Assembly (NCBI RefSeq): GCF_000015585.1
Contig: NC_008789.1
Location: 990,001-1,022,000 of the forward strand
Reading direction: 5' to 3'
DNA: 32,000 nucleotides
From: Halorhodospira halophila SL1
GTDB lineage: Bacteria; Pseudomonadota; Gammaproteobacteria; Nitrococcales; Halorhodospiraceae
The notes beneath the pieces were generated by a model that was not told where the DNA came from, did no database searches, and saw only the letters and a list, made by a program, of their open reading frames with translations. Position numbers and translations under genes: made by a program. Positions 113 to 24,496 of this stretch are shown in pieces. How positions within the stretch are numbered: position 1 is the first letter of the stretch; the number at the start of each line of letters is the position of its first letter.

Positions 113-1000
113 ATGACAGCCAGTACTCCCGTTGCCCAGACGCACATCCAGAGCCTGCCGCTGCTGCACAGCGGCAAGGTCCGTGATATCTACGCCGTCG
201 ATGATGAGCGACTGCTGATCGTGGCCACCGATCGGCTCTCCGCCTTCGACGTGATCCTGCCGGACCCGATCCCCGACAAGGGGGCGGTGCTCACGCGGGT
301 CTCGAACTTCTGGTTCCGCAAGACCGCCCACCTGGCCGCCAACCACCTCCTCGACACCCCGCCGGAGTCGGTGGTGGCACCGGAGGAGGCCGATCAGGTG
401 CGCGACCGGGGTGTGGTGGTCCGCCGCCTGCAGGCCCTGCCGGTGGAGGCCATCGTGCGTGGCTACCTGGCCGGTTCCGGGTGGCAGTCGTACCAGCGCG
501 ACGGTACCGTCTCCGGGGTGGCGCTGCCCGACGGCCTGCGCCAGTCGGATCGACTGCCCGAGCCGATCTTCACGCCGACCACGAAGGCCGCGGTCGGCGA
601 CCACGACGAGCCGATCTCCTTCGCGCAGACCGTCGAACGCATCGGCGCCGACCTGGCCGAGCGGATCCGCACCATCGCCCTGGAGGTCTTCGCCCTGGCC
701 ACCGAGTATGCGGAGTCCCGCGGCCTGATCATCGCCGACACCAAGCTGGAGTTCGGTGTCACGCCCGAGGGCGAGCCGGTGATCATCGATGAGCTGCTGA
801 CCCCGGACTCGTCCCGCTTCTGGCCGGCCGACGCCTGGCAGCCCGGTGCCACGCCGCCGGCGTTCGACAAGCAGTACATCCGCGACCACCTGGAGGCGCT
901 GGGCTGGGACAAGCGCCCGCCGGCGCCCCACCTGACCGACGACGTGATCCGCCAGACCGCTGAGAAGTACCGCGAGGCCGAGCGGCTGCTGACGCGCTAG
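113..1000 (+). CDS. purC: Phosphoribosylaminoimidazole-succinocarboxamide (SAICAR) synthase
   Basis: The ORF ending at 1000 contains LLHSGKVRDIYAVDDERLLIVATDRLSAFDVILPDPIPDKGAVLTRVSNFWF and ...IIADTKLEFG..., which are typical PurC motifs. I moved the start to ATG 113 because the upstream photolyase-like frame stops at 102; the track start is ATG 89. Confidence 0.93.
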   Translation: MTASTPVAQTHIQSLPLLHSGKVRDIYAVDDERLLIVATDRLSAFDVILPDPIPDKGAVLTRVSNFWFRKTAHLAANHLLDTPPESVVAPEEADQVRDRGVVVRRLQALPVEAIVRGYLAGSGWQSYQRDGTVSGVALPDGLRQSDRLPEPIFTPTTKAAVGDHDEPISFAQTVERIGADLAERIRTIALEVFALATEYAESRGLIIADTKLEFGVTPEGEPVIIDELLTPDSSRFWPADAWQPGATPPAFDKQYIRDHLEALGWDKRPPAPHLTDDVIRQTAEKYREAERLLTR

Positions 1001-1077
1001 GCGCCCCCGCCGGCGCTCGCGCAGCACCCCCGGACCGCCCGCGGACCTGCAGCGATGGAACGACCCACGGGGCCGAA

Positions 1078-1091
1078 TTGATTATGCACAA
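1078..1091 (+). promoter_or_regulatory. Candidate FNR/CRP-type box TTGAT-N4-CACAA upstream of the Crp/Fnr gene
   Basis: TTGATTATGCACAA matches the TTGAT-N4-ATCAA consensus at 8 of 10 half-site positions. It lies in an AT-richer stretch (1078-1155) just upstream of the preferred ATG 1156. It is regulatory only if 1156, not 1078 or 1084, is the true start. Confidence 0.3.
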
Positions 1092-1155
1092 TACAGACGT
1101 CGCGAATGTGGTAGAGTCCCCCCGTCAGGGCATCAACCCCGCGGAGTGGATTCCC

Positions 1156-1848
1156 ATGGAACCAAGCGACTGCGAGAACTGCGCCATCCGCTCCGTCGCC
1201 CTGTTCGGCGAGATCGACCCACAGACGGTTGCGCAACTTCAGGATCAGGCGCGGGAGTTTCGCGAGCCGGCCGGTACAGTGCTCTACGAGGAGGGCAGCA
1301 ACGCCGACTCGGCCTTCACCCTGCGCGAGGGCATCATCAAGCTGGTGCGCAACCAGCCCGGGGGGCGCGAGCAGATCGTCCGGCTGCTGGTCGGCGGCGA
1401 TTTCTTCGGCGCCGAGGGGCTGTTCGGCGACGGCCATCACCACAGCGCCATCGCCCTCACCCCGGTCTTCCTCTGCCGGCTGCCGAACACCCTGATGGAG
1501 CAGCTGCGCACCGCCGACCCGACCTTCACCAACGCCCTGCTCAACCGCTGGCGGCGGGCCCTCAACGAGGTCGAGACCCTGGCCCTGGACCTGGGCGCAC
1601 GCAAGGCCGAGGAGCGCGTGGCCTCCTTCCTGCTCCACTGGCAGACCAAGCACGGGCGCCAGGCCGAGTGGCTCCCGCTGCCGCTGTCCCGCAGCGAGCT
1701 CGGCGATCTGCTGGGCCTGCGCGTCGAGACGGTGAGCCGGGTGATGGCGCGCTGGAAGCGCGAACGGGTGTTCGAGGAGCGCAGTGGCCACGTGCGCCTG
1801 CTGGCCACGGACGAACTCCATCAACTGGTCGACAACGCCGGCACCTAG
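1156..1848 (+). CDS. Crp/Fnr family transcriptional regulator
   Basis: The protein has a cNMP-binding-like barrel (GTVLYEEGSNADSAFTLREGIIKLV...GGDFFGAEGLF) and a C-terminal HTH (LPLSRSELGDLLGLRVETVSRVMARWKRE). An N-terminal C-x2-C (SDCENCAIRS) and a central Cys (VFLCRLP) recall FNR. I prefer ATG 1156 because GGAG at 1143-1146 sits 9 nt upstream. The track start is TTG 1078, and ATG 1084 is also possible. Confidence 0.85.
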   Translation: MEPSDCENCAIRSVALFGEIDPQTVAQLQDQAREFREPAGTVLYEEGSNADSAFTLREGIIKLVRNQPGGREQIVRLLVGGDFFGAEGLFGDGHHHSAIALTPVFLCRLPNTLMEQLRTADPTFTNALLNRWRRALNEVETLALDLGARKAEERVASFLLHWQTKHGRQAEWLPLPLSRSELGDLLGLRVETVSRVMARWKRERVFEERSGHVRLLATDELHQLVDNAGT

Positions 1849-11679: not shown

Positions 11680-12489
11680 TTAGCGCCAAAAGGTCAGGCC
11701 GTTGAGGGTGCCGTCGGTTAGGGCGCTTGGGTAGCGGTGCAGCACCTCCGGGCCGTACTCGCGGGCACGGCGCTCATCGTCCCGCTGGCGGTAGGGGTCG
11801 AACACCCGCCCCGGCGGCAGCGGCTTGCGCGGATCCATGTACCAGCAGTAGAAATCCCACTCCTCCTGCATCCGCCCCAGGGGTACGCTGAGGTGGTTGT
11901 CCGGGCGAAGGGCGCTGATACCGCCGAAGTGTCCCCCGTAGGACCCTGGGCTGTACTCGGGGATCACCTCCAGCTCCCGCCAGGGCACCTCGATGTAGTC
12001 CCCTTCGCCCACCGGCGGGAGGGAGACGGTCTGCTTGCGACGGTCGAAGGTCACCGTGTGCGGTGGCCGCTTGCCGCGGCGCATGCGGATATAGCTGCGC
12101 AGCTGGCGCAGGGAGATCCATAAAGAAAAAGCCGTTAGCGCAGCCAGCCCTGCCGAGAACATGGCAGCGAAAACCATGACCGAGAAATACCAGGCTGGAA
12201 AATCCTCCACAGCGAACACTACTGCCATTACTCCGAAGACAATGGATCCCGCCAAGAAAGCCCCGCTAAAAAAGAGAGGAATTAATGCCTGCGCTAGCTC
12301 GTCGCATCTACAGGGACGCTGGATGTACTCATCATCAGCCAAGATCCCTAACTCCCTCTCCGTCCCGTCATCATCGAGCACCGGGAAAGGAGGGAGCCTT
12401 TCTGAATCCTTTACCAACCAACGCTTACCTGCGGAGCGACGGGCCACCCAGCGGCTGATGAACGGCGGGCGGTAGAATGTCCACGCCAT
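11680..12489 (-). CDS. Two-TM membrane protein, putative immunity protein for the upstream effector
   Basis: The 269-aa ORF has GGGAGG 7 nt upstream of its ATG and starts 15 nt after the effector stop. Two hydrophobic helices are visible (LIPLFFSGAFLAGSIVFGVMAVVFAV and WYFSVMVFAAMFSAGLAALTAFSLWISL), followed by a soluble tail of about 140 aa. I recognise no family. The immunity role is inferred from position only. Confidence 0.6.
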   Translation of the reverse strand: MAWTFYRPPFISRWVARRSAGKRWLVKDSERLPPFPVLDDDGTERELGILADDEYIQRPCRCDELAQALIPLFFSGAFLAGSIVFGVMAVVFAVEDFPAWYFSVMVFAAMFSAGLAALTAFSLWISLRQLRSYIRMRRGKRPPHTVTFDRRKQTVSLPPVGEGDYIEVPWRELEVIPEYSPGSYGGHFGGISALRPDNHLSVPLGRMQEEWDFYCWYMDPRKPLPPGRVFDPYRQRDDERRAREYGPEVLHRYPSALTDGTLNGLTFWR

Positions 12490-12504: not shown

Positions 12505-15500
12505 TCACCCCTGCGACCGGCTCCCGGCCGCCTCTTCCCTGAGCACCTCGTCCACGGTCAGCGCACGGGGCGCCACCGCCGCCTTGGCCCGACCCTGCCA
12601 GGCGGGCACGGGCACCCGGGCCACCCAGTAGCGGGGCGTGCCGTCGGCCTCGGGCTCCGGCAGGGCGTCGTCACCGGCGCCGGCTACCGCCCGCTGCCGG
12701 ATGAGGAAGCAGAGCTCGCCGCGCCACCCCGGGGCCGTCGGCAGGGCGTCCCAGGCGAGGGTTACCGTGAGGGCGTCGGAGCCCTCCCCCGGCGCCGCCT
12801 TGATGAACGCTGGAGGCAGCGGGGTCACCTCCTGGCAGGCACCGTCCTCCGGGCAGAGCAGCACCCGACACTCCAGGCGGTCCCGCCGCCACGCCACCCC
12901 CGCCAGGGTCAGGCGGACCTGGCGCAGGGCGCCCCGGCCGCCCAGCTGCTGGCTGTACTCGGCGGCCACCCGCAGCGGCGGGCGGTGCAGGACGCGCTGC
13001 CACCAGGCGGCCACCGCCGGCCAGTCGTCCCAGCTCCCGGTCTCGGCGGGCCGTTGCACCGGTGGCCCCACCTCCACCGCCCGGGCCACCCAGGCCCACC
13101 CCGAATCCCGGTCCGAGCCACCCAGCCGCTCCCGGGCTGTTGGGGTAAAGGGGCCATTGCGACAGAAATCGGCAAACGAAGTATCTGAAACATAGCCCGC
13201 TATAGCCGACGCACCGACGGCTACCAAGAGAAACGACAGACCAACACCTCCGCTACCCGCAAGCCAGAAGCCACCCGCACCCAGGTAAGCTAACCCCGCC
13301 ACGAACCACGTCCGGCTGGCTACCTCATCACCACGTGAGGATCGACTGTAGCCGCGGCCCGCGGCATAGATCGCGCTTGCGAAAGCGGCTGCACCACCAA
13401 GCACTTGCGCCCGTAATCCCAACCGCTCGATACGCCCATACCTCGGATCCCCCACCGGAATCCGTGGCTTCAGATAGGCGAGCCGGGTCTGGGCGAGCAG
13501 CTCCGCCAGGGTCAGGGAGGAGGCGACGGCGCTGGCGATGTGGTACCAGGCCTCGGTACGGGTCTGGCGTACCGCCTGGTTGAGGTTGATGAGCTCCAAG
13601 GCGCCGAAGACGCTGCGCAGTGCGTGGCCGCCGGAGCTGGTGGAGAGGCGCTCGGCCAGGTCGGCCAGGCGACCCTCCGGCAGGCGGGTGGAACGCAGTT
13701 CGCGGACACGGATCTCGTCCTCGATGCGCAGCTCGGCGGTGAGGGGGCTGCCGAGGACCTGCACCGGGCCGCGGCCGGCATCGGCCACGGCGGCGTGGTA
13801 GTCGTCGCTGCCGGCGGCGAGGATGCGGAAGCGCCGCTCGTAGCCCTGGTGCTCGATCCGCAGGGTGCGCGCCTCGCCTCCCGTAGGCGCTCCGGCGCGG
13901 CGCTGGATTTCGGCCAGCGGGACGCCGTCGAAGTCCGGCGCCGGGTAGCTGACCGTGGTCACCTCCAACCCCGCCAGCAGGGCCAGACCGGGCAGCTCCT
14001 GGAAGCGGCAGGTGATGCGCATGACGTGCTCGAGGGCGTCGCCCTGATAGCTCACCGACTCGGCGAAGGTCGACAGCAACACGTACAGGACCTCCGCCGC
14101 GTCCTCGGCGGTCACCGCACGGCGCTGCTCGGCCAGGTCGCAGCAACGCTCCACTGCCTGGAGACGCCGCGGCGCCGCCGCCAGCTGCAGCTCCAGCTCC
14201 CGGCGCGGCCGGGGCAAGCCGCCGCCCCGCGCCCCGGCGCCCAGGGTCAGCGGCTCGGCCGCCAACAACCGGGCGGCGACCCGGGCCAGCCCGGAGGGAT
14301 CACCCTCGGCCTCCAGGACGGTGCGCAGCAGCGCGCGGGCCTGATCCAGTTCTGCGGCCTCCGCCTCGCCCTCGGCCGCGGGGATGTCGCCGATGTAACC
14401 GTCGGCGGTGTCCGCCGGCACGGCCAGCTCCCGGAAGTGCGCGCCCAGGGCGGCGAGTCCCTCGAAGACCCGGCGCGGGGTGTTGCCGGCGTAGTCGGCC
14501 AAGGCATCGGCGTAACGTTGGCTACTGAGCAGCGCCAAGCGCTTGCGGCGCACCCGGCGAATCTCGGCGCGGATCTCGCTGCGTTCGGCGACACCGAGCA
14601 GGCGCTCGAGCAGCTCGCGGTCGGGCGGTTGCTCGCCGGGCCCCAGGCGCTCCTCGACGAAGGCCAGACGAAAGGTGCCCGCCGCCACGGCGTGGAGGGA
14701 TTCGGCCGCCGCCAGCCATTGCTCGTCGGGCTGCTGCGGATCGCCCTCCCCTTCGCCGACGGTGCTTCGCTCCGGATTGGTGCCGGTCTGCAGCCCGGCG
14801 ACCAGCGTCTCGAGTCGATCCGCCAGCGCCGCCTGCTCATGGGCCAACCCGCGCGCCTCGCCCAGGGGGTCGTCGAGGTAGAGCAATGCCAGACCGTCCT
14901 CGGCGTAGGGGGCGAGATCCTCGCGGACCGGCTCGGATTCGCCTTCTTCCGCCACCGCGTCGCGGAAGGCGCCACTCCCCCCGAGGCGGCCGGCCGCCCC
15001 GGGCCCGGTGTCGGGGTCTTCGGTTAGCTCAATGGGGAAGAAGCGCGCCTCGGGGGGTGGCTCGGCGGCGCCGTCCGGTTCACCGTGTACCCCGGCCCGG
15101 GGATCGTCGGGGGCCAGCCCGCCGGCGGCGGCGATGCGCGCCCAGGGGAGCTGGACGGCAGAAAACAGCCCCTCCAGGACCACCGGCTCGCCGCCGATGC
15201 GCAGCGGCAGGAGCAGCATCGGCCGCCCATCACCGGTGGGCCGGCGCAGGTCGCCGTGCTCGTAGGCCAGGTTGACCTCGTGGAGGCGGCCACGCGGGTG
15301 GACATAGCACTCACGCCACAGGTAGCGCCGATCCCCCTCCCGACGGAACAGGTAGAGCCACCCCCCGAAGCCGAAGCCGGCGTCGCGGTGGCGGAGCTCG
15401 GCGTCCCGGGCGAAGCGCACCAGCGTCGGGATCAGGACCGTCGGCGGGGAGACCTCGGGCTCCTCCCCCGGCAGCCACGCCGGCTGTTCGGCCCCGCGGG

Positions 15501-16188
15501 TGAGCGGGACCTTGCAGAGGTGGTGACGCCGGTCGGCGTCGATCAGGCTCAGTTGCAGCGCTTCGGTCCCTTCGGGGAGCTCTTCGATGGCGGCTCCCCA
15601 CCGCTCGCCGTCGTGGTGGCTCCAGCGTAGGGCCCGGCTGCGGTGCCAGCCGCCCGACGCCGGCTCGACCACCACCTCGCCGGGGAGCGGGGCCTGCGGC
15701 CCGCCACCGATGTCGATCCGCGTCCGCGGTCGTGGCTCGGCGTCCGGCGGCGGATCGCCGCCGGTCAGGGTGGTGGGCGGGAGCTGCTCCTGGAGCAGCG
15801 GGGCCGGCGGGGTGTTCTCGTGGTTGGCCACCATGGCGTCGAGGGCTCGAGCCACCGGCACGCCCTCGACGAAGACGTCCGGCGAGCCGCTGCCGGGCAG
15901 GAAGGTCGCCGGACCGGTGATGGTGCCGGAAACGGTCCCGCCCTGATCACCCCCCTCGTCGCCCCGGGAGCGGGCGAACTGCGAGGCCTCGGTGCAGACC
16001 GGGTGCCCCTCGACGAAGACAGTTCGGGCGGTCTCCGCGGCGTCCCGCGACTCGGCCACATTGAGGTACGGGATCGACACCGTCGAGCTGCCGACGGTGG
16101 TGCGGCAGACGTCGGTGGTCAGCAACTCGCCCCCGGAGCCAGCGTGCACCAGGGTGCGGCCATTGGCGGTTACCGTGGGCCGGGTCAC
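12505..16188 (-). CDS. Large T6SS-type effector with an N-terminal PAAR-like DUF4150 domain, a VasX/MIX-like region and C-terminal TM helices
   Basis: Residues 1 to about 128 read TANGRTLVHAGSGGELLTTDVCRT..VSIPYLNVAESRDAAETARTVFVEGHPV..SRGDEGGDQGGTVSGTITGPATFLPGSGSPDVFVEGVPVARALDAMVANHENTPP, the DUF4150 pattern. LIPTLVRFA and GFGGWLYLF (aa 251-281) resemble MIX/VasX_N motifs. Glycine-rich TM helices lie at about aa 880-995. I chose GTG 16188 as the start, overlapping the upstream stop as GTGA. The track's 1578-aa ORF carries 351 Arg/Pro-rich out-of-frame-looking extra codons. Confidence 0.85.
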   Translation of the reverse strand: MTRPTVTANGRTLVHAGSGGELLTTDVCRTTVGSSTVSIPYLNVAESRDAAETARTVFVEGHPVCTEASQFARSRGDEGGDQGGTVSGTITGPATFLPGSGSPDVFVEGVPVARALDAMVANHENTPPAPLLQEQLPPTTLTGGDPPPDAEPRPRTRIDIGGGPQAPLPGEVVVEPASGGWHRSRALRWSHHDGERWGAAIEELPEGTEALQLSLIDADRRHHLCKVPLTRGAEQPAWLPGEEPEVSPPTVLIPTLVRFARDAELRHRDAGFGFGGWLYLFRREGDRRYLWRECYVHPRGRLHEVNLAYEHGDLRRPTGDGRPMLLLPLRIGGEPVVLEGLFSAVQLPWARIAAAGGLAPDDPRAGVHGEPDGAAEPPPEARFFPIELTEDPDTGPGAAGRLGGSGAFRDAVAEEGESEPVREDLAPYAEDGLALLYLDDPLGEARGLAHEQAALADRLETLVAGLQTGTNPERSTVGEGEGDPQQPDEQWLAAAESLHAVAAGTFRLAFVEERLGPGEQPPDRELLERLLGVAERSEIRAEIRRVRRKRLALLSSQRYADALADYAGNTPRRVFEGLAALGAHFRELAVPADTADGYIGDIPAAEGEAEAAELDQARALLRTVLEAEGDPSGLARVAARLLAAEPLTLGAGARGGGLPRPRRELELQLAAAPRRLQAVERCCDLAEQRRAVTAEDAAEVLYVLLSTFAESVSYQGDALEHVMRITCRFQELPGLALLAGLEVTTVSYPAPDFDGVPLAEIQRRAGAPTGGEARTLRIEHQGYERRFRILAAGSDDYHAAVADAGRGPVQVLGSPLTAELRIEDEIRVRELRSTRLPEGRLADLAERLSTSSGGHALRSVFGALELINLNQAVRQTRTEAWYHIASAVASSLTLAELLAQTRLAYLKPRIPVGDPRYGRIERLGLRAQVLGGAAAFASAIYAAGRGYSRSSRGDEVASRTWFVAGLAYLGAGGFWLAGSGGVGLSFLLVAVGASAIAGYVSDTSFADFCRNGPFTPTARERLGGSDRDSGWAWVARAVEVGPPVQRPAETGSWDDWPAVAAWWQRVLHRPPLRVAAEYSQQLGGRGALRQVRLTLAGVAWRRDRLECRVLLCPEDGACQEVTPLPPAFIKAAPGEGSDALTVTLAWDALPTAPGWRGELCFLIRQRAVAGAGDDALPEPEADGTPRYWVARVPVPAWQGRAKAAVAPRALTVDEVLREEAAGSRSQG

Positions 16189-17213
16189 GCGGCACCCCCA
16201 GAGGAGGCGCCACCCCCCACGGTGCTTTCGGCCGGCTTGCGCAGGTCGAACACGCCGGCGACGCCGTCCCCCGCGGCGGTCAGCAGGATGCGCTGCGGGC
16301 CCTCGGCGGCGTGCAGCAGCCCGGCGGCTGCCACCAGCTGCAGGGGCAGTGTGGCCGCGCCGGAAAACCCTAGGCCGCGCCACAGCAGGTGGCGCGCGGC
16401 GGCCGGGGTGCGCCGCAGGGCGGGCACCAGCCGGCGGACGTTGGCCCAGGCCTGGCGCTCTGCCGGGGTGGCGCCGAACCCGTGGGCCTCGACCAGGGCG
16501 CCGGCAGCGTCTGCTTCCGGCACGGTCTCCTGGAGCAGTCGCTGCCAGGTGGCGGGCTGCTCCGACGGACCGCCCAGGGCCGCGCGCTGGAGCAGCAGGC
16601 CGGCCGACCCGGCGGGGGCGGTGCGCAGCAGCAGGAAGGCGGCGCCATCCGCGGCGGGGGGTCCGTCGATGGCGGGGAGGCACCGGCGGCGCAAGCGCGG
16701 ATCGGCGCAGGCCGCCGGGGCCGCGCAGGGATCGACGCCGCCGATCAGGAGGCTCGCCAGCCGACCCTCGGCAACCGCCTGCGCGGCCCGGTGGAGCAAC
16801 TGCACCGCCGATACGGGCCCCTGCGGCCGCCACCAGGCCACCCGCCGAAGCGGCGATACCCGATCGGTCAGCTGCCCGATCAGCCAGTGGTGCTGCGCCC
16901 AGCGCACCCCGGGTTGATGGGGCCCCGGCGGGATCACCACCGCCGCCGCGGGGGGCGCGGCGGTGAGGCGCTCGCTCAGCCGCGGGGCGCTGTCCGCGAC
17001 CAGGCGGTCCATGCGCGCGGCGTAGCCCTGGCCGTCCAGCGCCGGATCGCTGAGCACTGGGATCGGCTGCTGCGGCGCCTCGCCGAGCAGCTCGGGCTGT
17101 GCCACGGGCGGGGCGTCGGTCACCGCACGGGCCAGGGCCTCGGGATCGGTGCCGGCGGCGTGCCAGGCGGCCAGCGGCTCGAACAGCACGGGGGCGGTGG
17201 TGGCGTGGTTCAT
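16185..17213 (-). CDS. Degenerate beta-ketoacyl-synthase/thiolase-fold protein, likely a non-enzymatic accessory or chaperone
   Basis: The 342-aa protein starts at ATG 17213, in an ATGA overlap with the DUF2169 gene stop. KAS-like landmarks are present: AARMDRL, RPQGPVSAVQLLHRAAQAVAEGRLASLLIGGVD, ADGAAFLLL, VEAHGFGAT and GLGFSGAATLPLQL. There is no Cys at the nucleophile position, and the second catalytic His is replaced (GFSGAA versus GHxxGAAG). Confidence 0.7.
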   Translation of the reverse strand: MNHATTAPVLFEPLAAWHAAGTDPEALARAVTDAPPVAQPELLGEAPQQPIPVLSDPALDGQGYAARMDRLVADSAPRLSERLTAAPPAAAVVIPPGPHQPGVRWAQHHWLIGQLTDRVSPLRRVAWWRPQGPVSAVQLLHRAAQAVAEGRLASLLIGGVDPCAAPAACADPRLRRRCLPAIDGPPAADGAAFLLLRTAPAGSAGLLLQRAALGGPSEQPATWQRLLQETVPEADAAGALVEAHGFGATPAERQAWANVRRLVPALRRTPAAARHLLWRGLGFSGAATLPLQLVAAAGLLHAAEGPQRILLTAAGDGVAGVFDLRKPAESTVGGGASSGGAA

Positions 17214-20280: not shown

Positions 20281-21003
20281 ATGCCCCGCCTCTACATCGC
20301 CCAGCCCCTGAGCGCCGCAGCGGTGATCGAACTCACCGCCGACGCCGCCGCCCACGCCCGGGCGCTGCGCCTGCGCCCCGGCGATGCGGTGACCCTATTC
20401 AACGGCGAGGGCGGCGAGCACCCGAGCGAGGTCGTGGCGGTGGAGCGGCGCCGGGTAACGGTACGCGTGGGCGCCCACGACCCCACTGAGCGCGAGCTGC
20501 CGGCGGCCGTTCAACTACTGCAGGCGGTAGGCAAGGGCGAACGCATGGACACTGCGGTGGAGAAGGCGACCGAGCTGGGGGTCAGCGAGATCGTGCCGGT
20601 GCTCACCGAGCGCACCGTGGTGCGGCTGAATGATCCGCAGCGCGCCGCCAAGCGCCGCCGGCACTGGGAGGCGGTGGCGCGGGCCGCCTGCGAGCAGTGC
20701 GGGCGCAACACGCCGCCGCGGGTGGCCGAGCCGGTGCCGTTGGCGCAGGCCTGGGGGCACAGCCGGGATTACCCGCTGCGCCTGACCCTGGACCCGCTGG
20801 CCGACCCCCGCCTCAGCGAACTCACCGGGGCGCAGGCCACCTCGCTGCTCATCGGCCCCGAGGGCGGGCTCAGCCCGACGGAGCTGGAGGCGGCCGGCGA
20901 ACACGGTTTCCTCCGCGGGCGGGTGGGCCCCCGGGTCCTGCGCACGGAGACCGCCGCCGTGGTCGCCCTCGCCGCCGTCGGCCTCGCCCTGGGCGAACTC
21001 TAG
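20281..21003 (+). CDS. rsmE: 16S rRNA (uracil1498-N3)-methyltransferase
   Basis: The N-terminus MPRLYIAQPL...HARALRLRPGDAVTLFNGEGGEH and the C-terminal SPOUT motif LLIGPEGGLSPTELE...RVLRTETAAV are both present. Confidence 0.9.
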   Translation: MPRLYIAQPLSAAAVIELTADAAAHARALRLRPGDAVTLFNGEGGEHPSEVVAVERRRVTVRVGAHDPTERELPAAVQLLQAVGKGERMDTAVEKATELGVSEIVPVLTERTVVRLNDPQRAAKRRRHWEAVARAACEQCGRNTPPRVAEPVPLAQAWGHSRDYPLRLTLDPLADPRLSELTGAQATSLLIGPEGGLSPTELEAAGEHGFLRGRVGPRVLRTETAAVVALAAVGLALGEL

Positions 21004-23504
21004 CCCGGCTCGCCGCCCTCCAGTGCAGCGCACGCCTGGGCCAGGGCGTCGGCAAGCTGGCCCTCGTCGTAGGGCTTGAGCAGCACCCGCGCCGCGCCCA
21101 GCCCCGCGGCCGCGAGCCGCTCCTGATCGACGGCCCGGGTGCTCACCGCGACCACCGCCCCGGCGGCGATCCCGGCCTCGGCCACCAGGCGCTGGAGCAC
21201 GCCGAGCCCCTCCTCGTGCTGGAGCATCTCCATCTCCAGGTCGATGAGCACCGCCCGCGGCGCGCGCTCGGCCACGGCGCGCCGCGCCTCGTCGAGGCCG
21301 GCGGCGCCCTCCGGGTCGAAGCCCTGGCGCGCCAGCCGATGACCGGTGATCCGGCGCATGGTGCGCGAGTCGTCGAGGACCAGGATGCGAGGCCGCTCGG
21401 GGGCCTCGCCGGGGGGCTGCTCCGCGGCCTTCGCCCCGCGCATGGGCAGCCGCAGGGTGAAGCGGGCGCCGGCCCCCGGGGCGCTCTGCATCTCCAGCGT
21501 GCCACCGAGTTCGTGGACCACGCCGGCGACCTCGTCCATGCCCATGCCGGCCCCCGGGTCGCCCTCCGGCCCCAGCGTGGAGACCCCCGGCAGGCAGATC
21601 AGGCTCAGCGCCTCATCGTCGCTGAGGGCCGCGGTGGGCTCGTTGGGGTCGTAGTCGGAGACCTGGCGCTGCAGCGCCTCGGTGTCGAGTCCGGCGCCGT
21701 CGTCACTGACCACCAGCAGCACCTCGTCCTGGCCGTAGCGCAGGCTGAGCCCAACTCGGCCGACCTCCGGCTTACCGGCGGCACTGCGCGCCTCGGGGGG
21801 TTCAATACCGTGGCGCACGGCGTTGCGCAGCAGGTGCTCCAGCGCCGGCCGCAGGGCCTCCAGATAGGCCTCGGGCAGCGCGCGGGACGCCCCCTCCACG
21901 ACCAGCTCGACACGCCGGCCATACTCGCCGGCGGTGGCGTGGACCTGTCGATCGAGGGCGTCGATGTCCGGCTCCAGGGTCGCCAGCGCCGGCTCGGGGT
22001 CACGAGCCGGTTCCGCGACCGGAGCCGACTCGGTGGCGGGATCCGGCGGGTCGGCGTCCGCGTCGGCGGCCTCGTCCTCCGTTGCGGCCAATTCGGCGGC
22101 CAGGGCGTCGCCGAGCACCTCGGCGCTGGATCCGGTCTGCAGCTCCCAGCCATCCTCCGCAGGGGACGGCTCCGGGTCCTCGTCGGCCCACAGCTCGCCG
22201 TAATCGAAGGCCGCCGCTTCAGCGTCCGGCTCGGCGCCCGGCTCCGCGGTGTGACCCAGGACCTCGCGGCGCAGCACGCCGACCCGGTCGGCCAGTTGCT
22301 CCAGTTCGTGGCGCAGGCGCTGAGCGGTCCCGGCGGTAGCGCCATCCGCCAGCGCCGTGGCCACCTCGCCCTCGAGTTCGTGGCAGTGGGCGAAGAACTC
22401 GGTGAGGCCAGCGAAGCGCGCCCCGCCCTTGAGGGTGTGCAGGATGCGCTGGATGGCCAGCCCCGCCTCTGGGTCGCCGGCGCGCCAGCGCTGCAGGGCG
22501 GCGCCGATCTGCGACAGCGCCGGCCCCACCTCGGCGTAGAACAGCGCCTGCAGATCGACGTCGCTGCGCACCAGCGCCCGCGAGGCCGCCCCGGCCTCAT
22601 CCTCGGCCGGGGGCGGCATGGCCAGGGTGGCCCCGGGCAAGCGCCGGGCGGCCGCCTGGACCTGGCCCACCCGGCCGGTGCCCGGCGCCTCGGTGAGCGG
22701 CTGGAGCAGCGCCTCGGCCATGCTCGATTCGGGGAGCCCGCCCACTGCACCGTGCTCGAGCAGCCGGCGCAGCTCGCGGTCGTAGGCGGCAATCGCCCGC
22801 TTCTGCCCCGGATCCAGGGTCTCGCCCTGCTCCAGCAGATCGAGCACCGCCAGGGCGCTCCAGCAGGCGCTGCCGGCGGCGCTGTCGCCCAGGGCCGCCT
22901 CCAGGGGCTCGAGGACGCCGCGCAGCTGGCCGAGGGCCCGGCGTTCGTCGCCGCGGATCAGCTCCAGGAGCCCGCGCTGGTAGGCCAGACGGCTGGTGCG
23001 GGCGGTCTCGGCGACCTCGCCGTGGGCCGCGGGCGCGCTCGGGTCAACGCACTGACGCAGCAGCGCCAGGCTGTCGTAGCGCGGCTGACCGCGGGCGCGG
23101 CGCAGCCCGTCGATGAGGCTGGCCAGCTCCGCCACCGGGTCCTCGGCCCGTACGGCGATGCGCTCGATGGCCCGGGGCAGCCGCAGCACGGCATCCATCA
23201 GGGCCGCGCGCAGCGGCTGGACCTCCACCCCGCCCTCGTCCGGCGACTGGTAGGCCCGTTCCAGGTCGGCCGCGGCGCCGCGCAGCTCGGCACTGAGGTG
23301 CTCGAGTTCGCGTACGCCGACGAACAGGAAACCGCCGTGCAGGCGCTGGAGCTCGCCGTGGAGCGCGGTCAGGGCGCCGGGCTCGTCACCCGCCTCCTGC
23401 AGACGCACCGCCGCGGCGCTGACGCTGTCGCGCAGTTCGGGCAGCAGCCGGGTCAGCTCGCGCCGGGGGTCGACGCCGAAGGCCTTGGTTCGTCGCTCAT
23501 CCAT
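21000..23504 (-). CDS. CheA/ChpA-like hybrid histidine kinase (Hpt, CheA-type HATPase and receiver domains; no CheW-like domain)
   Basis: The Hpt motif ILHTLKGGARFAGL, the CheA P4 signatures ALEHLLRNAVRHGIEPPEARSAAGKPEVGRV and VVSDDGAGLD, and a C-terminal REC domain (RILVLDDSRTMRR...VLIDLEMEM...LLKP) are present. A second, degenerate Hpt-like segment lies near the N-terminus (LHGELQRLHGGFLFVG). The start is uncertain: ATG 23504 is chosen here, and the track has TTG 23525. Confidence 0.8.
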   Translation of the reverse strand: MDERRTKAFGVDPRRELTRLLPELRDSVSAAAVRLQEAGDEPGALTALHGELQRLHGGFLFVGVRELEHLSAELRGAAADLERAYQSPDEGGVEVQPLRAALMDAVLRLPRAIERIAVRAEDPVAELASLIDGLRRARGQPRYDSLALLRQCVDPSAPAAHGEVAETARTSRLAYQRGLLELIRGDERRALGQLRGVLEPLEAALGDSAAGSACWSALAVLDLLEQGETLDPGQKRAIAAYDRELRRLLEHGAVGGLPESSMAEALLQPLTEAPGTGRVGQVQAAARRLPGATLAMPPPAEDEAGAASRALVRSDVDLQALFYAEVGPALSQIGAALQRWRAGDPEAGLAIQRILHTLKGGARFAGLTEFFAHCHELEGEVATALADGATAGTAQRLRHELEQLADRVGVLRREVLGHTAEPGAEPDAEAAAFDYGELWADEDPEPSPAEDGWELQTGSSAEVLGDALAAELAATEDEAADADADPPDPATESAPVAEPARDPEPALATLEPDIDALDRQVHATAGEYGRRVELVVEGASRALPEAYLEALRPALEHLLRNAVRHGIEPPEARSAAGKPEVGRVGLSLRYGQDEVLLVVSDDGAGLDTEALQRQVSDYDPNEPTAALSDDEALSLICLPGVSTLGPEGDPGAGMGMDEVAGVVHELGGTLEMQSAPGAGARFTLRLPMRGAKAAEQPPGEAPERPRILVLDDSRTMRRITGHRLARQGFDPEGAAGLDEARRAVAERAPRAVLIDLEMEMLQHEEGLGVLQRLVAEAGIAAGAVVAVSTRAVDQERLAAAGLGAARVLLKPYDEGQLADALAQACAALEGGEPG

Positions 23505-23551
23505 GGGTTGGTTACAATGCCACAAACCACTCAGCTGCCGTGAATCTGCCC

Positions 23552-24496
23552 ATGAGCGCCCGACTCGGCGTGGTGATGGACCCCATCGCCGCCATCAAGC
23601 CCCGCAAGGACTCCACCCTGGCCCTCCTGCTCGAGGCCCAGCGCCGCGGCTACGAGCTCTGGTACTTCCTGGCCACAGACCTCTACGCCGACGGCGGCGC
23701 CGCCTGCGGCCGCGGCCGACCGCTGACGGTCCGCGACGACGTGCACGACTGGTACACCGTGGGTGAGCCGCGAGCCATGCCCCTGGCGGAGCTCGACACC
23801 ATCCTCATGCGCGAGGACCCTCCGGTGGACGCCGGCTACATCAGCGCCACGCAGCTGCTGTCCCTGGCCGAGGCGCAGGGGGTCCGGGTGGTCAACCGGC
23901 CCGCGGCGCTGCGCGACGCCAACGAGAAGCTCTTCGCCCTGCACTGGCCGCACCTCTGCCCGGCCACCCGGGTGGCCGCCGACCCGGCACTGCTGCGCGG
24001 GTTCATCGCCGAGCAGGGCAAGGCGGTGCTCAAGCCCCTGGACGCCATGGGCGGGGCGTCGATCTTCGTCCTCGCCGACGGCGACCCGAATACCAGCGTG
24101 GTCCTGGAGACCCTCACCGACGGCGGACGGCGCTACGCCATGGCCCAAGAATACCTGCCGCGGATCGACGAGGGCGACAAGCGGGTCCTGGTCTTCGGTG
24201 GTGAGCCCTTCCCCCACGCCCTGGCGCGCATCCCGGCGCGGGGCGAGACCCGGGGCAACCTGGCGGCCGGCGGCCGCGGCGAGGCGGCACCGGTCACCGA
24301 ACGCGAGCGCGCCGTCTGCGCCGAGCTGGCCCCTACCCTGCGCGAGCGCGGCCTGGAACTGGTCGGCCTGGACTTCATCGGTGAGCGGCTCACCGAGATC
24401 AACGTCACCAGCCCCACCTGCTTTCGGGAGATCGACGCCCTGTGTGGCGTGAACACCGCCGGGGCCTTCTTCGACCACCTGGAGGGCTCGGCATGA
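23552..24496 (+). CDS. gshB: Glutathione synthetase
   Basis: MSARLGVVMDPIAAIKPRKDSTLALLLEAQRRGYEL is colinear with E. coli GshB (MIKLGIVMDPIANINIKKDSSFAMLLEAQRRGYEL). Further matches include KPLDAMGGASIF, ETRGNLAAGGRGE and LTEINVTSPTC. The track start is GTG 23540. Confidence 0.94.
   Translation: MSARLGVVMDPIAAIKPRKDSTLALLLEAQRRGYELWYFLATDLYADGGAACGRGRPLTVRDDVHDWYTVGEPRAMPLAELDTILMREDPPVDAGYISATQLLSLAEAQGVRVVNRPAALRDANEKLFALHWPHLCPATRVAADPALLRGFIAEQGKAVLKPLDAMGGASIFVLADGDPNTSVVLETLTDGGRRYAMAQEYLPRIDEGDKRVLVFGGEPFPHALARIPARGETRGNLAAGGRGEAAPVTERERAVCAELAPTLRERGLELVGLDFIGERLTEINVTSPTCFREIDALCGVNTAGAFFDHLEGSA

Follow-up and report, generated by a model that had tools for sequence, protein, structure and literature searches.

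The stretch of DNA considered here, referred to as the window, comprises 32,000 nucleotides of the genome of the gammaproteobacterium Halorhodospira halophila SL1 (NCBI RefSeq assembly GCF_000015585.1, contig NC_008789.1, positions 990,001 to 1,022,000 of the forward strand), and it contains a gene for a large composite protein that appears to be a type VI secretion system (T6SS) effector. This gene belongs to a compact block of five minus-strand genes that is bordered by a convergent FGGY-family kinase gene on one side and a divergent bioA-type aminotransferase gene on the other, and the rest of the window is made up of housekeeping genes. The block encodes, in the direction of transcription, a protein of 153 amino acids (aa), a DUF2169 protein, a 342-aa accessory protein termed orf342, the effector itself and a 269-aa membrane protein, which is a candidate for the cognate immunity protein. 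The genes and the predicted domains of their products are collected in Table 1.

Table 1. Genes and predicted features of the effector block. Positions are those of the window and residues those of the encoded protein.
Feature	Residues	Window positions	Strand	Basis or remarks
153-aa TvpC-like protein, probable gp5/VgrG-type OB fold and short beta-prism	153 aa	18238..18699	-	Position, size, UniRef names
DUF2169 protein (chaperone/adaptor of the TvpA type, serving PAAR-like proteins)	338 aa	17210..18226	-	PF09937, E=3.2e-56
orf342, accessory gene, TvpD-like (PRK06147 / thiolase-like pseudo-synthase class)	342 aa	16185..17213	-	Homologue links, position
Effector gene, one open reading frame, GTG start	1227 aa	12505..16188 (stop included)	-	Open reading frame and translation
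PAAR-like (DUF4150 / Tox-PAAR-like) spike-tip domain, running into proline-rich linker	1-135	15784..16188	-	Pfam PF13665
N-terminal beta subdomain and degenerate MIX-type alpha/beta domain	155-228 and 250-438	14875..15726	-	AlphaFold2, motif columns, alignments
Modelled beta subdomain	155-228			AlphaFold2, moderate to high confidence, pLDDT 56-93 per 10-residue block
Modelled alpha/beta domain	250-438			AlphaFold2, high confidence
Alpha-helical scaffold	441-740	13969..14868	-	AlphaFold2 helices (model residues 305-604), mostly high confidence; aligned with relatives
Beta-strand insert	741-833	13690..13968	-	AlphaFold2 strands (model residues 605-697), low pLDDT 37-58
Helical region with putative transmembrane (pore-forming) domain	841-1003	13180..13668	-	AlphaFold2 helices, hydropathy
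Modelled helices	841-1067			AlphaFold2, mixed confidence
Effector hypervariable patch, including all three hydrophobic helices	~916-1015	13144..13443	-	48-57% nucleotide identity, flanks ~90%
C-terminal region: helices after the transmembrane domain, then Ig-like beta-sandwich	1004-1067 and 1072-1202	12583..13179	-	AlphaFold2, Foldseek
Modelled beta-strand domain	1072-1202			AlphaFold2, moderate confidence
Candidate immunity gene, two to three transmembrane helices (aa 65-127) and soluble C-terminal domain	269 aa	11680..12489	-	Hydropathy, homologues
Immunity-candidate hypervariable patch (transmembrane region)	~20-120	12133..12432	-	28-52% nucleotide identity, flanks 80-95%

The effector protein is 100% identical to an H. 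halophila entry in nr named "PAAR-like domain-containing protein", and its gene has a GC content at third codon positions (GC3) of 0.87, like that of the real genes in the window (72% GC). Over its whole length the protein is 79% identical to its counterpart in Halorhodospira sp. 9621, with a ratio of nonsynonymous to synonymous divergence (dN/dS) of 0.23 that falls to 0.06 in the PAAR domain. When residues 130-1227 alone served as the query, the identities were 76% to the protein of Halorhodospira sp. 9621 and 51% to a metagenomic protein. Such conservation and purifying selection are far beyond chance. The nr record is 1206 aa long and thus 21 residues shorter than the GTG-started reading frame (window 16126-16188). 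As these N-terminal 21 residues are kept in all homologues, the GTG at 16188, which overlaps the stop codon of the upstream gene (GTGA), is favoured as the start and the 1206-aa database start is less likely. Two plus-strand open reading frames that overlap the effector (13540-15027 and 15643-16917) were rejected as high-GC artefacts, because the GC3 signal and all of the homology lie in the minus-strand frame.

The spike-tip domain is matched by Pfam family PF13665 (Tox-PAAR-like, formerly DUF4150) at aa 23-127, with E=1.5e-32 and 112.3 bits against a cut-off of 31 bits, over model positions 5-107 of 108. The same part of the protein matches the PAAR-like N-terminus of an Rhs effector (8qjc_A, E=1.5e-18), the only match given by a direct PDB sequence search with a three-sequence family profile. 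A proline-rich linker (aa 127-155, nine prolines in 33 residues) leads into the beta subdomain and the degenerate MIX-type domain, for which AlphaFold2 predicts strands and helices with a local confidence (pLDDT) mostly above 85. The stretches that align with the three MIX motifs are LIPTLVR (aa 252-258), FGGWLYLF (aa 274-281) and LFSAVQLPWA (aa 341-350), the first within LIPTLVRFA at aa 252-260 and the second within GFGGWLYLFRREGDRRYLW at aa 273-291. In 150 relatives the corresponding columns read V-P-x-x-P-type, L-R-x-G-W-L-Y-[IVL]-F and A-[YF]-S-E-V-Q-W-S-W. The effector keeps the G, the W/L, the Y, the F, the S, the Q and the last W, and the proline and arginine of the first motif are shifted.

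The remainder of the protein was interpreted with the help of an AlphaFold2 model of aa 137-1227, generated from a 60-sequence alignment and having a mean pLDDT of 78.1 and a predicted template modelling score of 0.78. The MIX-type domain is followed by the long alpha-helical scaffold and the poorly modelled beta-strand insert, and the composition of aa 441-840 is dominated by alanine (16.5%), leucine (13.2%), arginine (11.8%) and glutamate (11.0%). The scaffold also contains an insertion peculiar to the Halorhodospira clade, GLPRPRRELELQLAAAPRRLQAVERCCDLAEQRRAV, at aa ~640-700 (window ~14090-14270), which is missing from most relatives in alignment A4. Next come three consecutive hydrophobic, Gly/Ala-rich helices, located by the model and by hydropathy at aa 928-951, 955-976 and 980-1000, which form the putative transmembrane domain (TMD). 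The first of these contains VLGGAAAFASAIYAAG at aa 929-944, and a 40-aa Gly/Ala-rich hydrophobic stretch occupies aa 961-1000. The helix at aa 980-1000 lacks charged residues, its hydropathy averaging 1.8, and the 42 residues from aa 960 to 1001 are free of charged and amide side chains, with a maximum Kyte-Doolittle 19-residue value of 2.03. The Colicin channel domain of Pfam gave no match at E<=10 on segments of the effector.

The C-terminal part begins with the helices that follow the TMD, which contain DFCRNGPF and GSWDDWPAVAAWW. A separate AlphaFold2 model of aa 995-1227 (pLDDT 77) consists of five helices and then seven to eight strands, and its best Foldseek matches in the PDB are immunoglobulin (Ig) V-type and ZP-N domains, with E-values of 3e-3 to 2e-2, probabilities of up to 0.99 and TM-scores of ~0.4. 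The model of the whole protein likewise gave weak Ig-like matches, and in neither Foldseek search was an enzyme fold found. The last 230 residues are conserved in relatives of ~1000 aa (alignment A4). The effector and its relatives share the motif D-x-P-L-E-x-F-A-K-N-G-P-F just after the TMD and G-x-P-R-Y near the end. A cysteine-containing segment, LECRVLLCPEDGAC, lies at aa 1105-1118; its cysteines are not conserved in the relative P0003 or in remoter relatives. In Tke5, a T6SS toxin of known structure, the beta-rich Ig-like domain binds membranes (PMC12909789), and according to the same paper the alpha-helical region is enough by itself to kill, the beta-rich domain being dispensable. Since an Ig-like, beta-rich domain stands at the end of Tke5 and also of a second toxin, Ptx2, the effector's C-terminal domain can be seen as a standard part of the family. 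As modelled, the C-terminal 230 aa correspond to the family's post-TMD helices and Ig-like domain rather than to an enzyme.

Much of this architecture had been read from the translation in an earlier note on the same DNA, and all of the sequence features that it quoted were found within a few residues of where it placed them. The PAAR-like tip is borne out by PF13665. The MIX/VasX-like region, with phenylalanine in place of the central arginine, is upheld by alignment with the 150 relatives, in which LFSAVQLPWA is recognisable as the third motif, and the long helical middle reappears in the AlphaFold2 model. The hydrophobic helices are also present, at aa 928-1000, slightly narrower than the aa 880-995 that had been proposed. 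Describing them as a colicin/VasX-like pore former holds for the VasX half, which the profiles favour, and as regards colicins is an analogy, no Pfam colicin domain being matched. The suggestion that the final 230 residues are an unassigned extra module has to be given up, given their likeness to the post-TMD helices and Ig-like domain of Tke5 and Ptx2 (PMC12909789), and Foldseek gave Ig-like matches only, not the known enzymatic toxin fold that the note had named as telling against its reading.

The family to which the effector belongs was established through profiles. Word-indexed homologue searches found only 3 to 7 Halorhodospira-clade proteins each, and when 1.84 billion representatives were scanned in full with HMMER, a profile of the non-PAAR part recovered 243 proteins at E<=1e-3. 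The best matches outside Halorhodospira (E=1e-39 to 1e-26) carry VasX_N together with sub-threshold BTH_I2691_fam matches. When a profile of three Halorhodospira-clade sequences was compared by hhalign with one of 16 VasX_N-bearing relatives, the two aligned with a probability of 100% and E=7.5e-60 over aa 199-1186 (871 aligned columns), that is, from the MIX region through to the C-terminal domain. A profile of 60 sequences with the effector at its head (A3) matches residues 150-952 of Tke5 (9r8g_A, E=2.3e-15), and a profile of the relatives alone matches the TMD region of Tke5 as well as that of Ptx2 (9qpv_A), the latter at E=5e-4. The link from the effector to Tke5 and Ptx2 is transitive, by way of profiles. 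On this profile evidence, and not by the thresholds of curated models, the effector can be placed in the VasX/BTH_I2691 superfamily as a new, divergent member of a known toxin family. The affinity to BTH_I2691 that the earlier note suspected is therefore correct at the level of the superfamily, as hhalign and the family profiles indicate, whereas membership of the curated BTH_I2691 model does not hold, its threshold having been failed. The note's separation of VasX from BTH_I2691 does not stand either, as current literature treats the two as a single family (PMC12909789).

The gene that follows the effector begins 15 nucleotides past the effector stop, behind a GGGAGG motif, and its 269-aa product has no match to a known immunity family in Pfam or NCBIfam. 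Searching by tblastn with its C-terminal domain revealed homologues directly downstream of VasX_N effectors in eight loci (L006, L009-L012, L014, L019 and L022). The taxa with such loci are Thiohalomonadales, Desulfuromonadales, Geopsychrobacteraceae and Desulfopila, and one locus has two tandem copies. The homologues have a common layout, in which transmembrane helices precede a conserved W..MD..LP...F[DE]P.R.D domain. The homologue in Halorhodospira sp. 9621 (L003:13701-14528) has been called as a protein of 173 aa starting at 14007, and an in-frame ATG at 13701 gives 275 aa that are collinear with the 269-aa protein of the window; the database start is probably too late. Immunity proteins already described for the family, namely Tki5, TsiV2 and Pti2, are inner-membrane proteins encoded downstream of their toxins (PMC13133200). 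The 269-aa membrane protein is likely to be the cognate immunity protein, as the note had supposed, a view supported by its transmembrane helices, by its recurrence downstream of related effectors and by the hypervariability that its transmembrane segments share with those of the toxin.

This shared hypervariability was seen when the locus was compared with that of Halorhodospira sp. 9621. In the effector patch, the proportions of synonymous (pS) and nonsynonymous (pN) differences are 0.83 (aa 926-1003) and 0.36, as against a pS of 0.31-0.42 for the effector overall; the protein identity between the two strains drops to 40% at aa 951-1000, and GC3 is 0.60 for aa 901-1000 as opposed to ~0.9 elsewhere. 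Whichever two of five alleles are compared, no segment is less conserved than the TMD patch, and it stays hydrophobic in the three alleles that were scored for hydropathy. In the immunity candidate, aa 31-120 share 23-33% protein identity and the patch has a pS of 0.77 and a pN of 0.55, whilst the C-terminal part of the same protein is ~90% identical, with a pS of 0.39 and a dN/dS of 0.15. The rest of both proteins, including the domain between the patches, is conserved. Because both patches are sharply bounded, saturated at synonymous sites and lower in GC than their flanks in both strains, they look like the result of allele replacement rather than of local fast evolution. One may tentatively suggest, at something short of even likelihood, that immunity specificity is set by direct helix-helix recognition within the membrane and diversifies through the swapping of matched transmembrane cassettes (aa ~916-1015 of the toxin and ~20-120 of the immunity candidate). 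With only two immunity-bearing alleles, the matched-cassette pattern is a lead and not a result.

The three genes upstream of the effector resemble a loading module. The class II Tvp genes of Pseudomonas aeruginosa, PA0096-PA0099, for which the system was defined in 2026, encode TvpC (DUF6484; an OB fold with a short beta-prism that mimics VgrG), TvpA, TvpD and a PAAR-like effector (PMC13373197), and judged from the sequences the gene order in the window, TvpC-like, DUF2169/TvpA and PRK06147-like TvpD, matches this arrangement. The orf342 gene overlaps both of its neighbours, the DUF2169 gene and the effector, by 4-nucleotide start/stop overlaps. It has no family match of its own in Pfam or NCBIfam, PRK06147 included. 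Its homologue L004_281 matches PRK06147.1 with E=4.7e-6, and L005_362, its positional equivalent in another PAAR-VasX cluster, does so over the full length with E=1.1e-12, both under the 342-bit cut-off; the orf342 groups are joined by tblastn (including L015) and by hidden Markov model comparison at E ~1e-7. In all of the relatives examined, syntenic or distant, the 153-aa gene opens the module. Its product and the homologue from H. halochloris bear the UniRef names 'Phage baseplate assembly protein V' and 'Gp5/Type VI secretion syst...', and this homologue has a weak DUF2345 match (E=0.0098). The 153-aa protein itself gave no Pfam (including DUF6484), PHROG or PDB sequence match, and an exact-sequence look-up returned no record; its C-terminus is repetitive (IRLEVAGAELELGADGAIRIDGE...RIRGARVAIN). 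A tblastn search of plasmids with this protein and orf342 found nothing, and none of the effector's neighbours matched a DUF4123 adaptor. In L035 (10500-11699), L005 (4656-5891) and L021 (5676-6917) an extra gene of ~400 aa stands between the 153-aa-type gene and the DUF2169 gene; the L005 copy matches TIGR02270 weakly (E=4e-5), and the gene is missing from the H. halophila-type module.

The partnership with a PAAR-like protein extends to the relatives of the effector. Amongst 29 related loci in species-representative genomes, at least 16 have a separate PAAR-like gene of ~180 aa that abuts the effector (L012:9399-9935, L006:1479-2021 and at least 14 others) and six have the two fused, and fusion occurs in ~35 of the best 150 representative relatives. 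The combination of PAAR and a VasX-type toxin in one chain is a known architecture, since the literature lists such fusions: PAAR-containing BTH_I2691 architectures are found in CDART (PMC13133200), and vpr01s_06_01360 of V. proteolyticus is a MIX II effector with an N-terminal PAAR (PMC5666596). The present analysis contributes the observation that the whole branch, to judge from its gene neighbourhoods, is accompanied by a PAAR-like partner and by genes of the Tvp type and not by DUF4123 adaptors.

For the family as a whole the connection to the T6SS is solid, because the module adjoins vgrG or tss genes in several genomes. In L021, a deltaproteobacterial metagenome-assembled genome, the same gene series comes directly after a gene for a true VgrG, which matches VgrGs of solved structure at E=1e-51. 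In H. halochloris (L035) the module is immediately upstream of tssJ-tssK-tssL, and in L004 the effector and a partial orf342-like gene, at which the contig ends, are directly upstream of tssJ-tssK-tssL-tssM-tssA. The module in the window is an orphan with no adjacent T6SS genes. All five genes of the block are intact, with dN/dS values of 0.06-0.33, and this purifying selection together with the 4-nucleotide start/stop overlaps indicates an expressed operon; a scan of the operon for sigma-70 promoters and terminators gave matches at chance level. A literature search on the T6SS in Halorhodospira found nothing relevant. A MIX-motif pattern scan of species-representative genomes (A4) gave no Halorhodospira record, though the pattern should match the effector, and the miss could be due to masking, to the choice of representative genome or to strain variation. 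Elsewhere in the window, at 21000-23525 on the minus strand and 23540-24496 on the plus strand, a hybrid Hpt-HATPase-receiver protein (ChpA/FimL-like) is encoded beside gshB and rsmE. This order is conserved housekeeping synteny, present in every locus of the Halorhodospira clade that was examined, and has nothing to do with the effector.

Taken together, the reading that is preferred, and in which there is good confidence, is that the effector is a PAAR-like-tipped T6SS toxin, mounted on VgrG with the assistance of Tvp proteins, which depolarises the target's inner membrane through a pore made by its hydrophobic helices and which is neutralised by the membrane protein encoded downstream. The PAAR-like domain would cap a trimer of VgrG, whose gene would lie in another part of the genome. 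Before this, it would be chaperoned by TvpA, the DUF2169 protein, and by TvpD, the PRK06147-like protein, and the gp5-like small protein (TvpC) may hold it in a pre-complex until VgrG takes over. Once the T6SS had fired into a neighbouring Gram-negative cell, the scaffold would release the hydrophobic helices (aa 928-1000), which are predicted to enter the inner membrane and to open there a pore for ions, through which the membrane potential would collapse, with the C-terminal Ig-like beta domain possibly aiding membrane binding or targeting. In the producer and its kin the 269-aa inner-membrane protein would neutralise the toxin, probably by contacts between transmembrane helices.

A number of observations weigh against this proposal. 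It starts from domain composition, homology, gene order, conservation and selection as observed at the locus; that the effector is secreted, forms a pore, is countered by an immunity protein and passes through a pre-complex is taken by analogy from work on Tke5, Ptx2, VasX and the Tvp systems of Serratia and Pseudomonas. At the level of the family, the NCBIfam model BTH_I2691 (NF041559) matches with 24.3 bits (E=1e-5), does not reach its cut-off of 150 bits and covers only aa 852-1014 (model positions 646-834). Pfam VasX_N (PF20249) gave no match at E<=10 even on isolated segments of the effector, and with the segments aa ~130-396, 397-796, 797-996 and 997-1227 nothing in Pfam was matched at that threshold. 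Foldseek searches with the whole and C-terminal models did not retrieve 9R8G or Ptx2 (9QPV), a miss that is weak evidence because the two solved prototypes superpose poorly on each other, with a reported root mean square deviation of 25 A (PMC12909789). The second MIX motif of the effector (GFGGWLYLF) has phenylalanine where the signature arginine stands in 96 of 150 relatives, and in the third (LFSAVQLPW) L and P replace W and S, so that a tryptophan is lost. In Tke5 two MIX arginines form salt bridges to the toxin body (PMC12909789). The loss of the arginine is not obviously due to the fusion, since PAAR-fused relatives retain it about as often as unfused ones (21/38 and 75/112, a difference that is not convincing). 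The identities of TvpC and TvpD are probable ones, drawn from gene order, weak matches and third-party names. The remaining two points, that the window holds neither vgrG nor hcp nor any core gene of a T6SS and that some relatives have no immunity-like gene, bear on particular alternatives and are taken up with them.

The alternatives were each judged independently and overlap with the preferred reading, such that their likelihoods need not add up to one. The absence of vgrG and core genes may mean that the module is left over from a lost or absent T6SS and is no longer secreted, and is either decaying or kept for another reason. In the canonical class II order vgrG stands directly before the small gene (PMC13373197), the place that is taken in the window by the divergent bioA gene, and the failure of the pattern scan to return Halorhodospira fits this idea as well. 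Decay is difficult to reconcile with five intact, tightly coupled genes under purifying selection, and in five lineages, down to ~53% identity, the block is still inserted at the same place, between bioA and the FGGY kinase gene. The related H. halochloris has its module within a T6SS core cluster, and according to the T6SS literature it is common for orphan effector modules to be served by a VgrG encoded far away (PMC5666596), which makes a relic improbable. Scarcely credible, by comparison, is the idea that toxicity is enzymatic or receptor-dependent, residing in the C-terminal 230 aa or the scaffold, with the hydrophobic helices serving merely as an anchor. It draws on the moderate quality of the C-terminal model and its weak Ig-like matches, on the conserved cysteine-containing segment and on the family member Bte2, which uses a protein receptor (PMC12909789). 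Against it, no enzyme family or fold was matched at any threshold tried, the cysteines vary amongst the remoter relatives, and in Tke5 the alpha-helical region suffices for killing (PMC12909789).

The role of the 269-aa protein invites a further alternative, in which it is an unrelated membrane protein or an accessory, for example a chaperone for the TMD, and immunity is encoded elsewhere or is not needed. Four relatives have no immunity-like gene beside the effector, namely the syntenic loci L001 and L040 and the T6SS-cluster copies L004 and L035, and to this can be added the lack of a match to known immunity families and the fact that the largest conserved part is the soluble C-terminal domain. 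The next gene in these four loci (L001:8427-8430, L040:15891-15918, L035:17838-17860 and L004:4637-4659) is a convergent FGGY kinase gene or tssJ. This alternative is nevertheless judged unlikely, as in distant taxa the gene right after a related effector encodes a homologue, sometimes in two copies, as the two hypervariable patches found at the locus coincide with the transmembrane segments of the protein and of the toxin, and as the position and inner-membrane nature of Tki5, TsiV2 and Pti2 (PMC13133200) are what the 269-aa protein appears to share.

The effector extends the VasX/BTH_I2691 family of pore-forming toxins, for which structures were solved recently, to a lineage that curated models have missed, that of the purple sulfur bacterium Halorhodospira; Desulfuromonadales, Geopsychrobacteraceae and Reinekea contain relatives. 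This branch is paired with a PAAR-like partner, either fused or encoded by an abutting gene, and with Tvp class II chaperones, whereas the characterised members use DUF4123 adaptors. The matched transmembrane patches furnish a hypothesis, testable by swaps, of how immunity proteins may recognise VasX-type toxins, a matter described as still unresolved in the Tke5 paper (PMC13133200). Otherwise the effector is the expected kind of T6SS cargo and a fairly ordinary member of its family.

The closest comparison is with Tke5 of Pseudomonas putida KT2440 (PDB 9R8G), which has the same succession of a MIX alpha/beta domain, a large helical region in which a hydrophobic TMD is buried and an Ig-like, beta-rich C-terminus (PMC12909789, PMC13133200), a motif of the P-L-E-x-W/F-A-x-x-G-P-F type after the TMD and a gene for a transmembrane protein directly downstream. 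Tke5 differs in being without a PAAR-like domain and in being loaded by the DUF4123 adaptor Tap3, which binds the MIX domain, whilst the effector has its PAAR-like domain fused and neighbours of the DUF2169/Tvp type. Moreover, the salt-bridge arginines R25 and R65 of Tke5 are not conserved in register in the effector, which has in addition an N-terminal beta subdomain of ~80 aa and clade-specific insertions. A MIX domain, a scaffold that encloses the TMD and an Ig-like C-terminus likewise make up two membrane-depolarising T6SS toxins, Ptx2 from Pseudomonas aeruginosa (PDB 9QPV; bioRxiv 10.1101/2025.04.30.651342) and the Vibrio cholerae protein VasX. They rely on DUF4123 adaptors (Tap6 and VasW), lack a PAAR fusion, unlike the effector, and have no detectable direct sequence similarity to it.

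In terms of gene order, the nearest system is the vgrG1b cluster of P. aeruginosa, PA0095-PA0099 (PMC13373197), where a PA0096-type small protein, a DUF2169 protein (PA0097), a PRK06147-type protein (PA0098), a PAAR-like effector and an immunity protein follow each other as they appear to do here. The window departs from it in that the cargo is of the VasX type and that no vgrG precedes the module. The cargo of the P. aeruginosa cluster, PA0099 (Tse7), is a nuclease. Finally, the PAAR-fused MIX effectors, represented by vpr01s_06_01360 and the CDART architectures of BTH_I2691, are known from bioinformatics only and display the same type of fusion, in contrast to most of the close relatives within the effector's own subfamily, in which the PAAR-like protein is the product of a separate, abutting gene.

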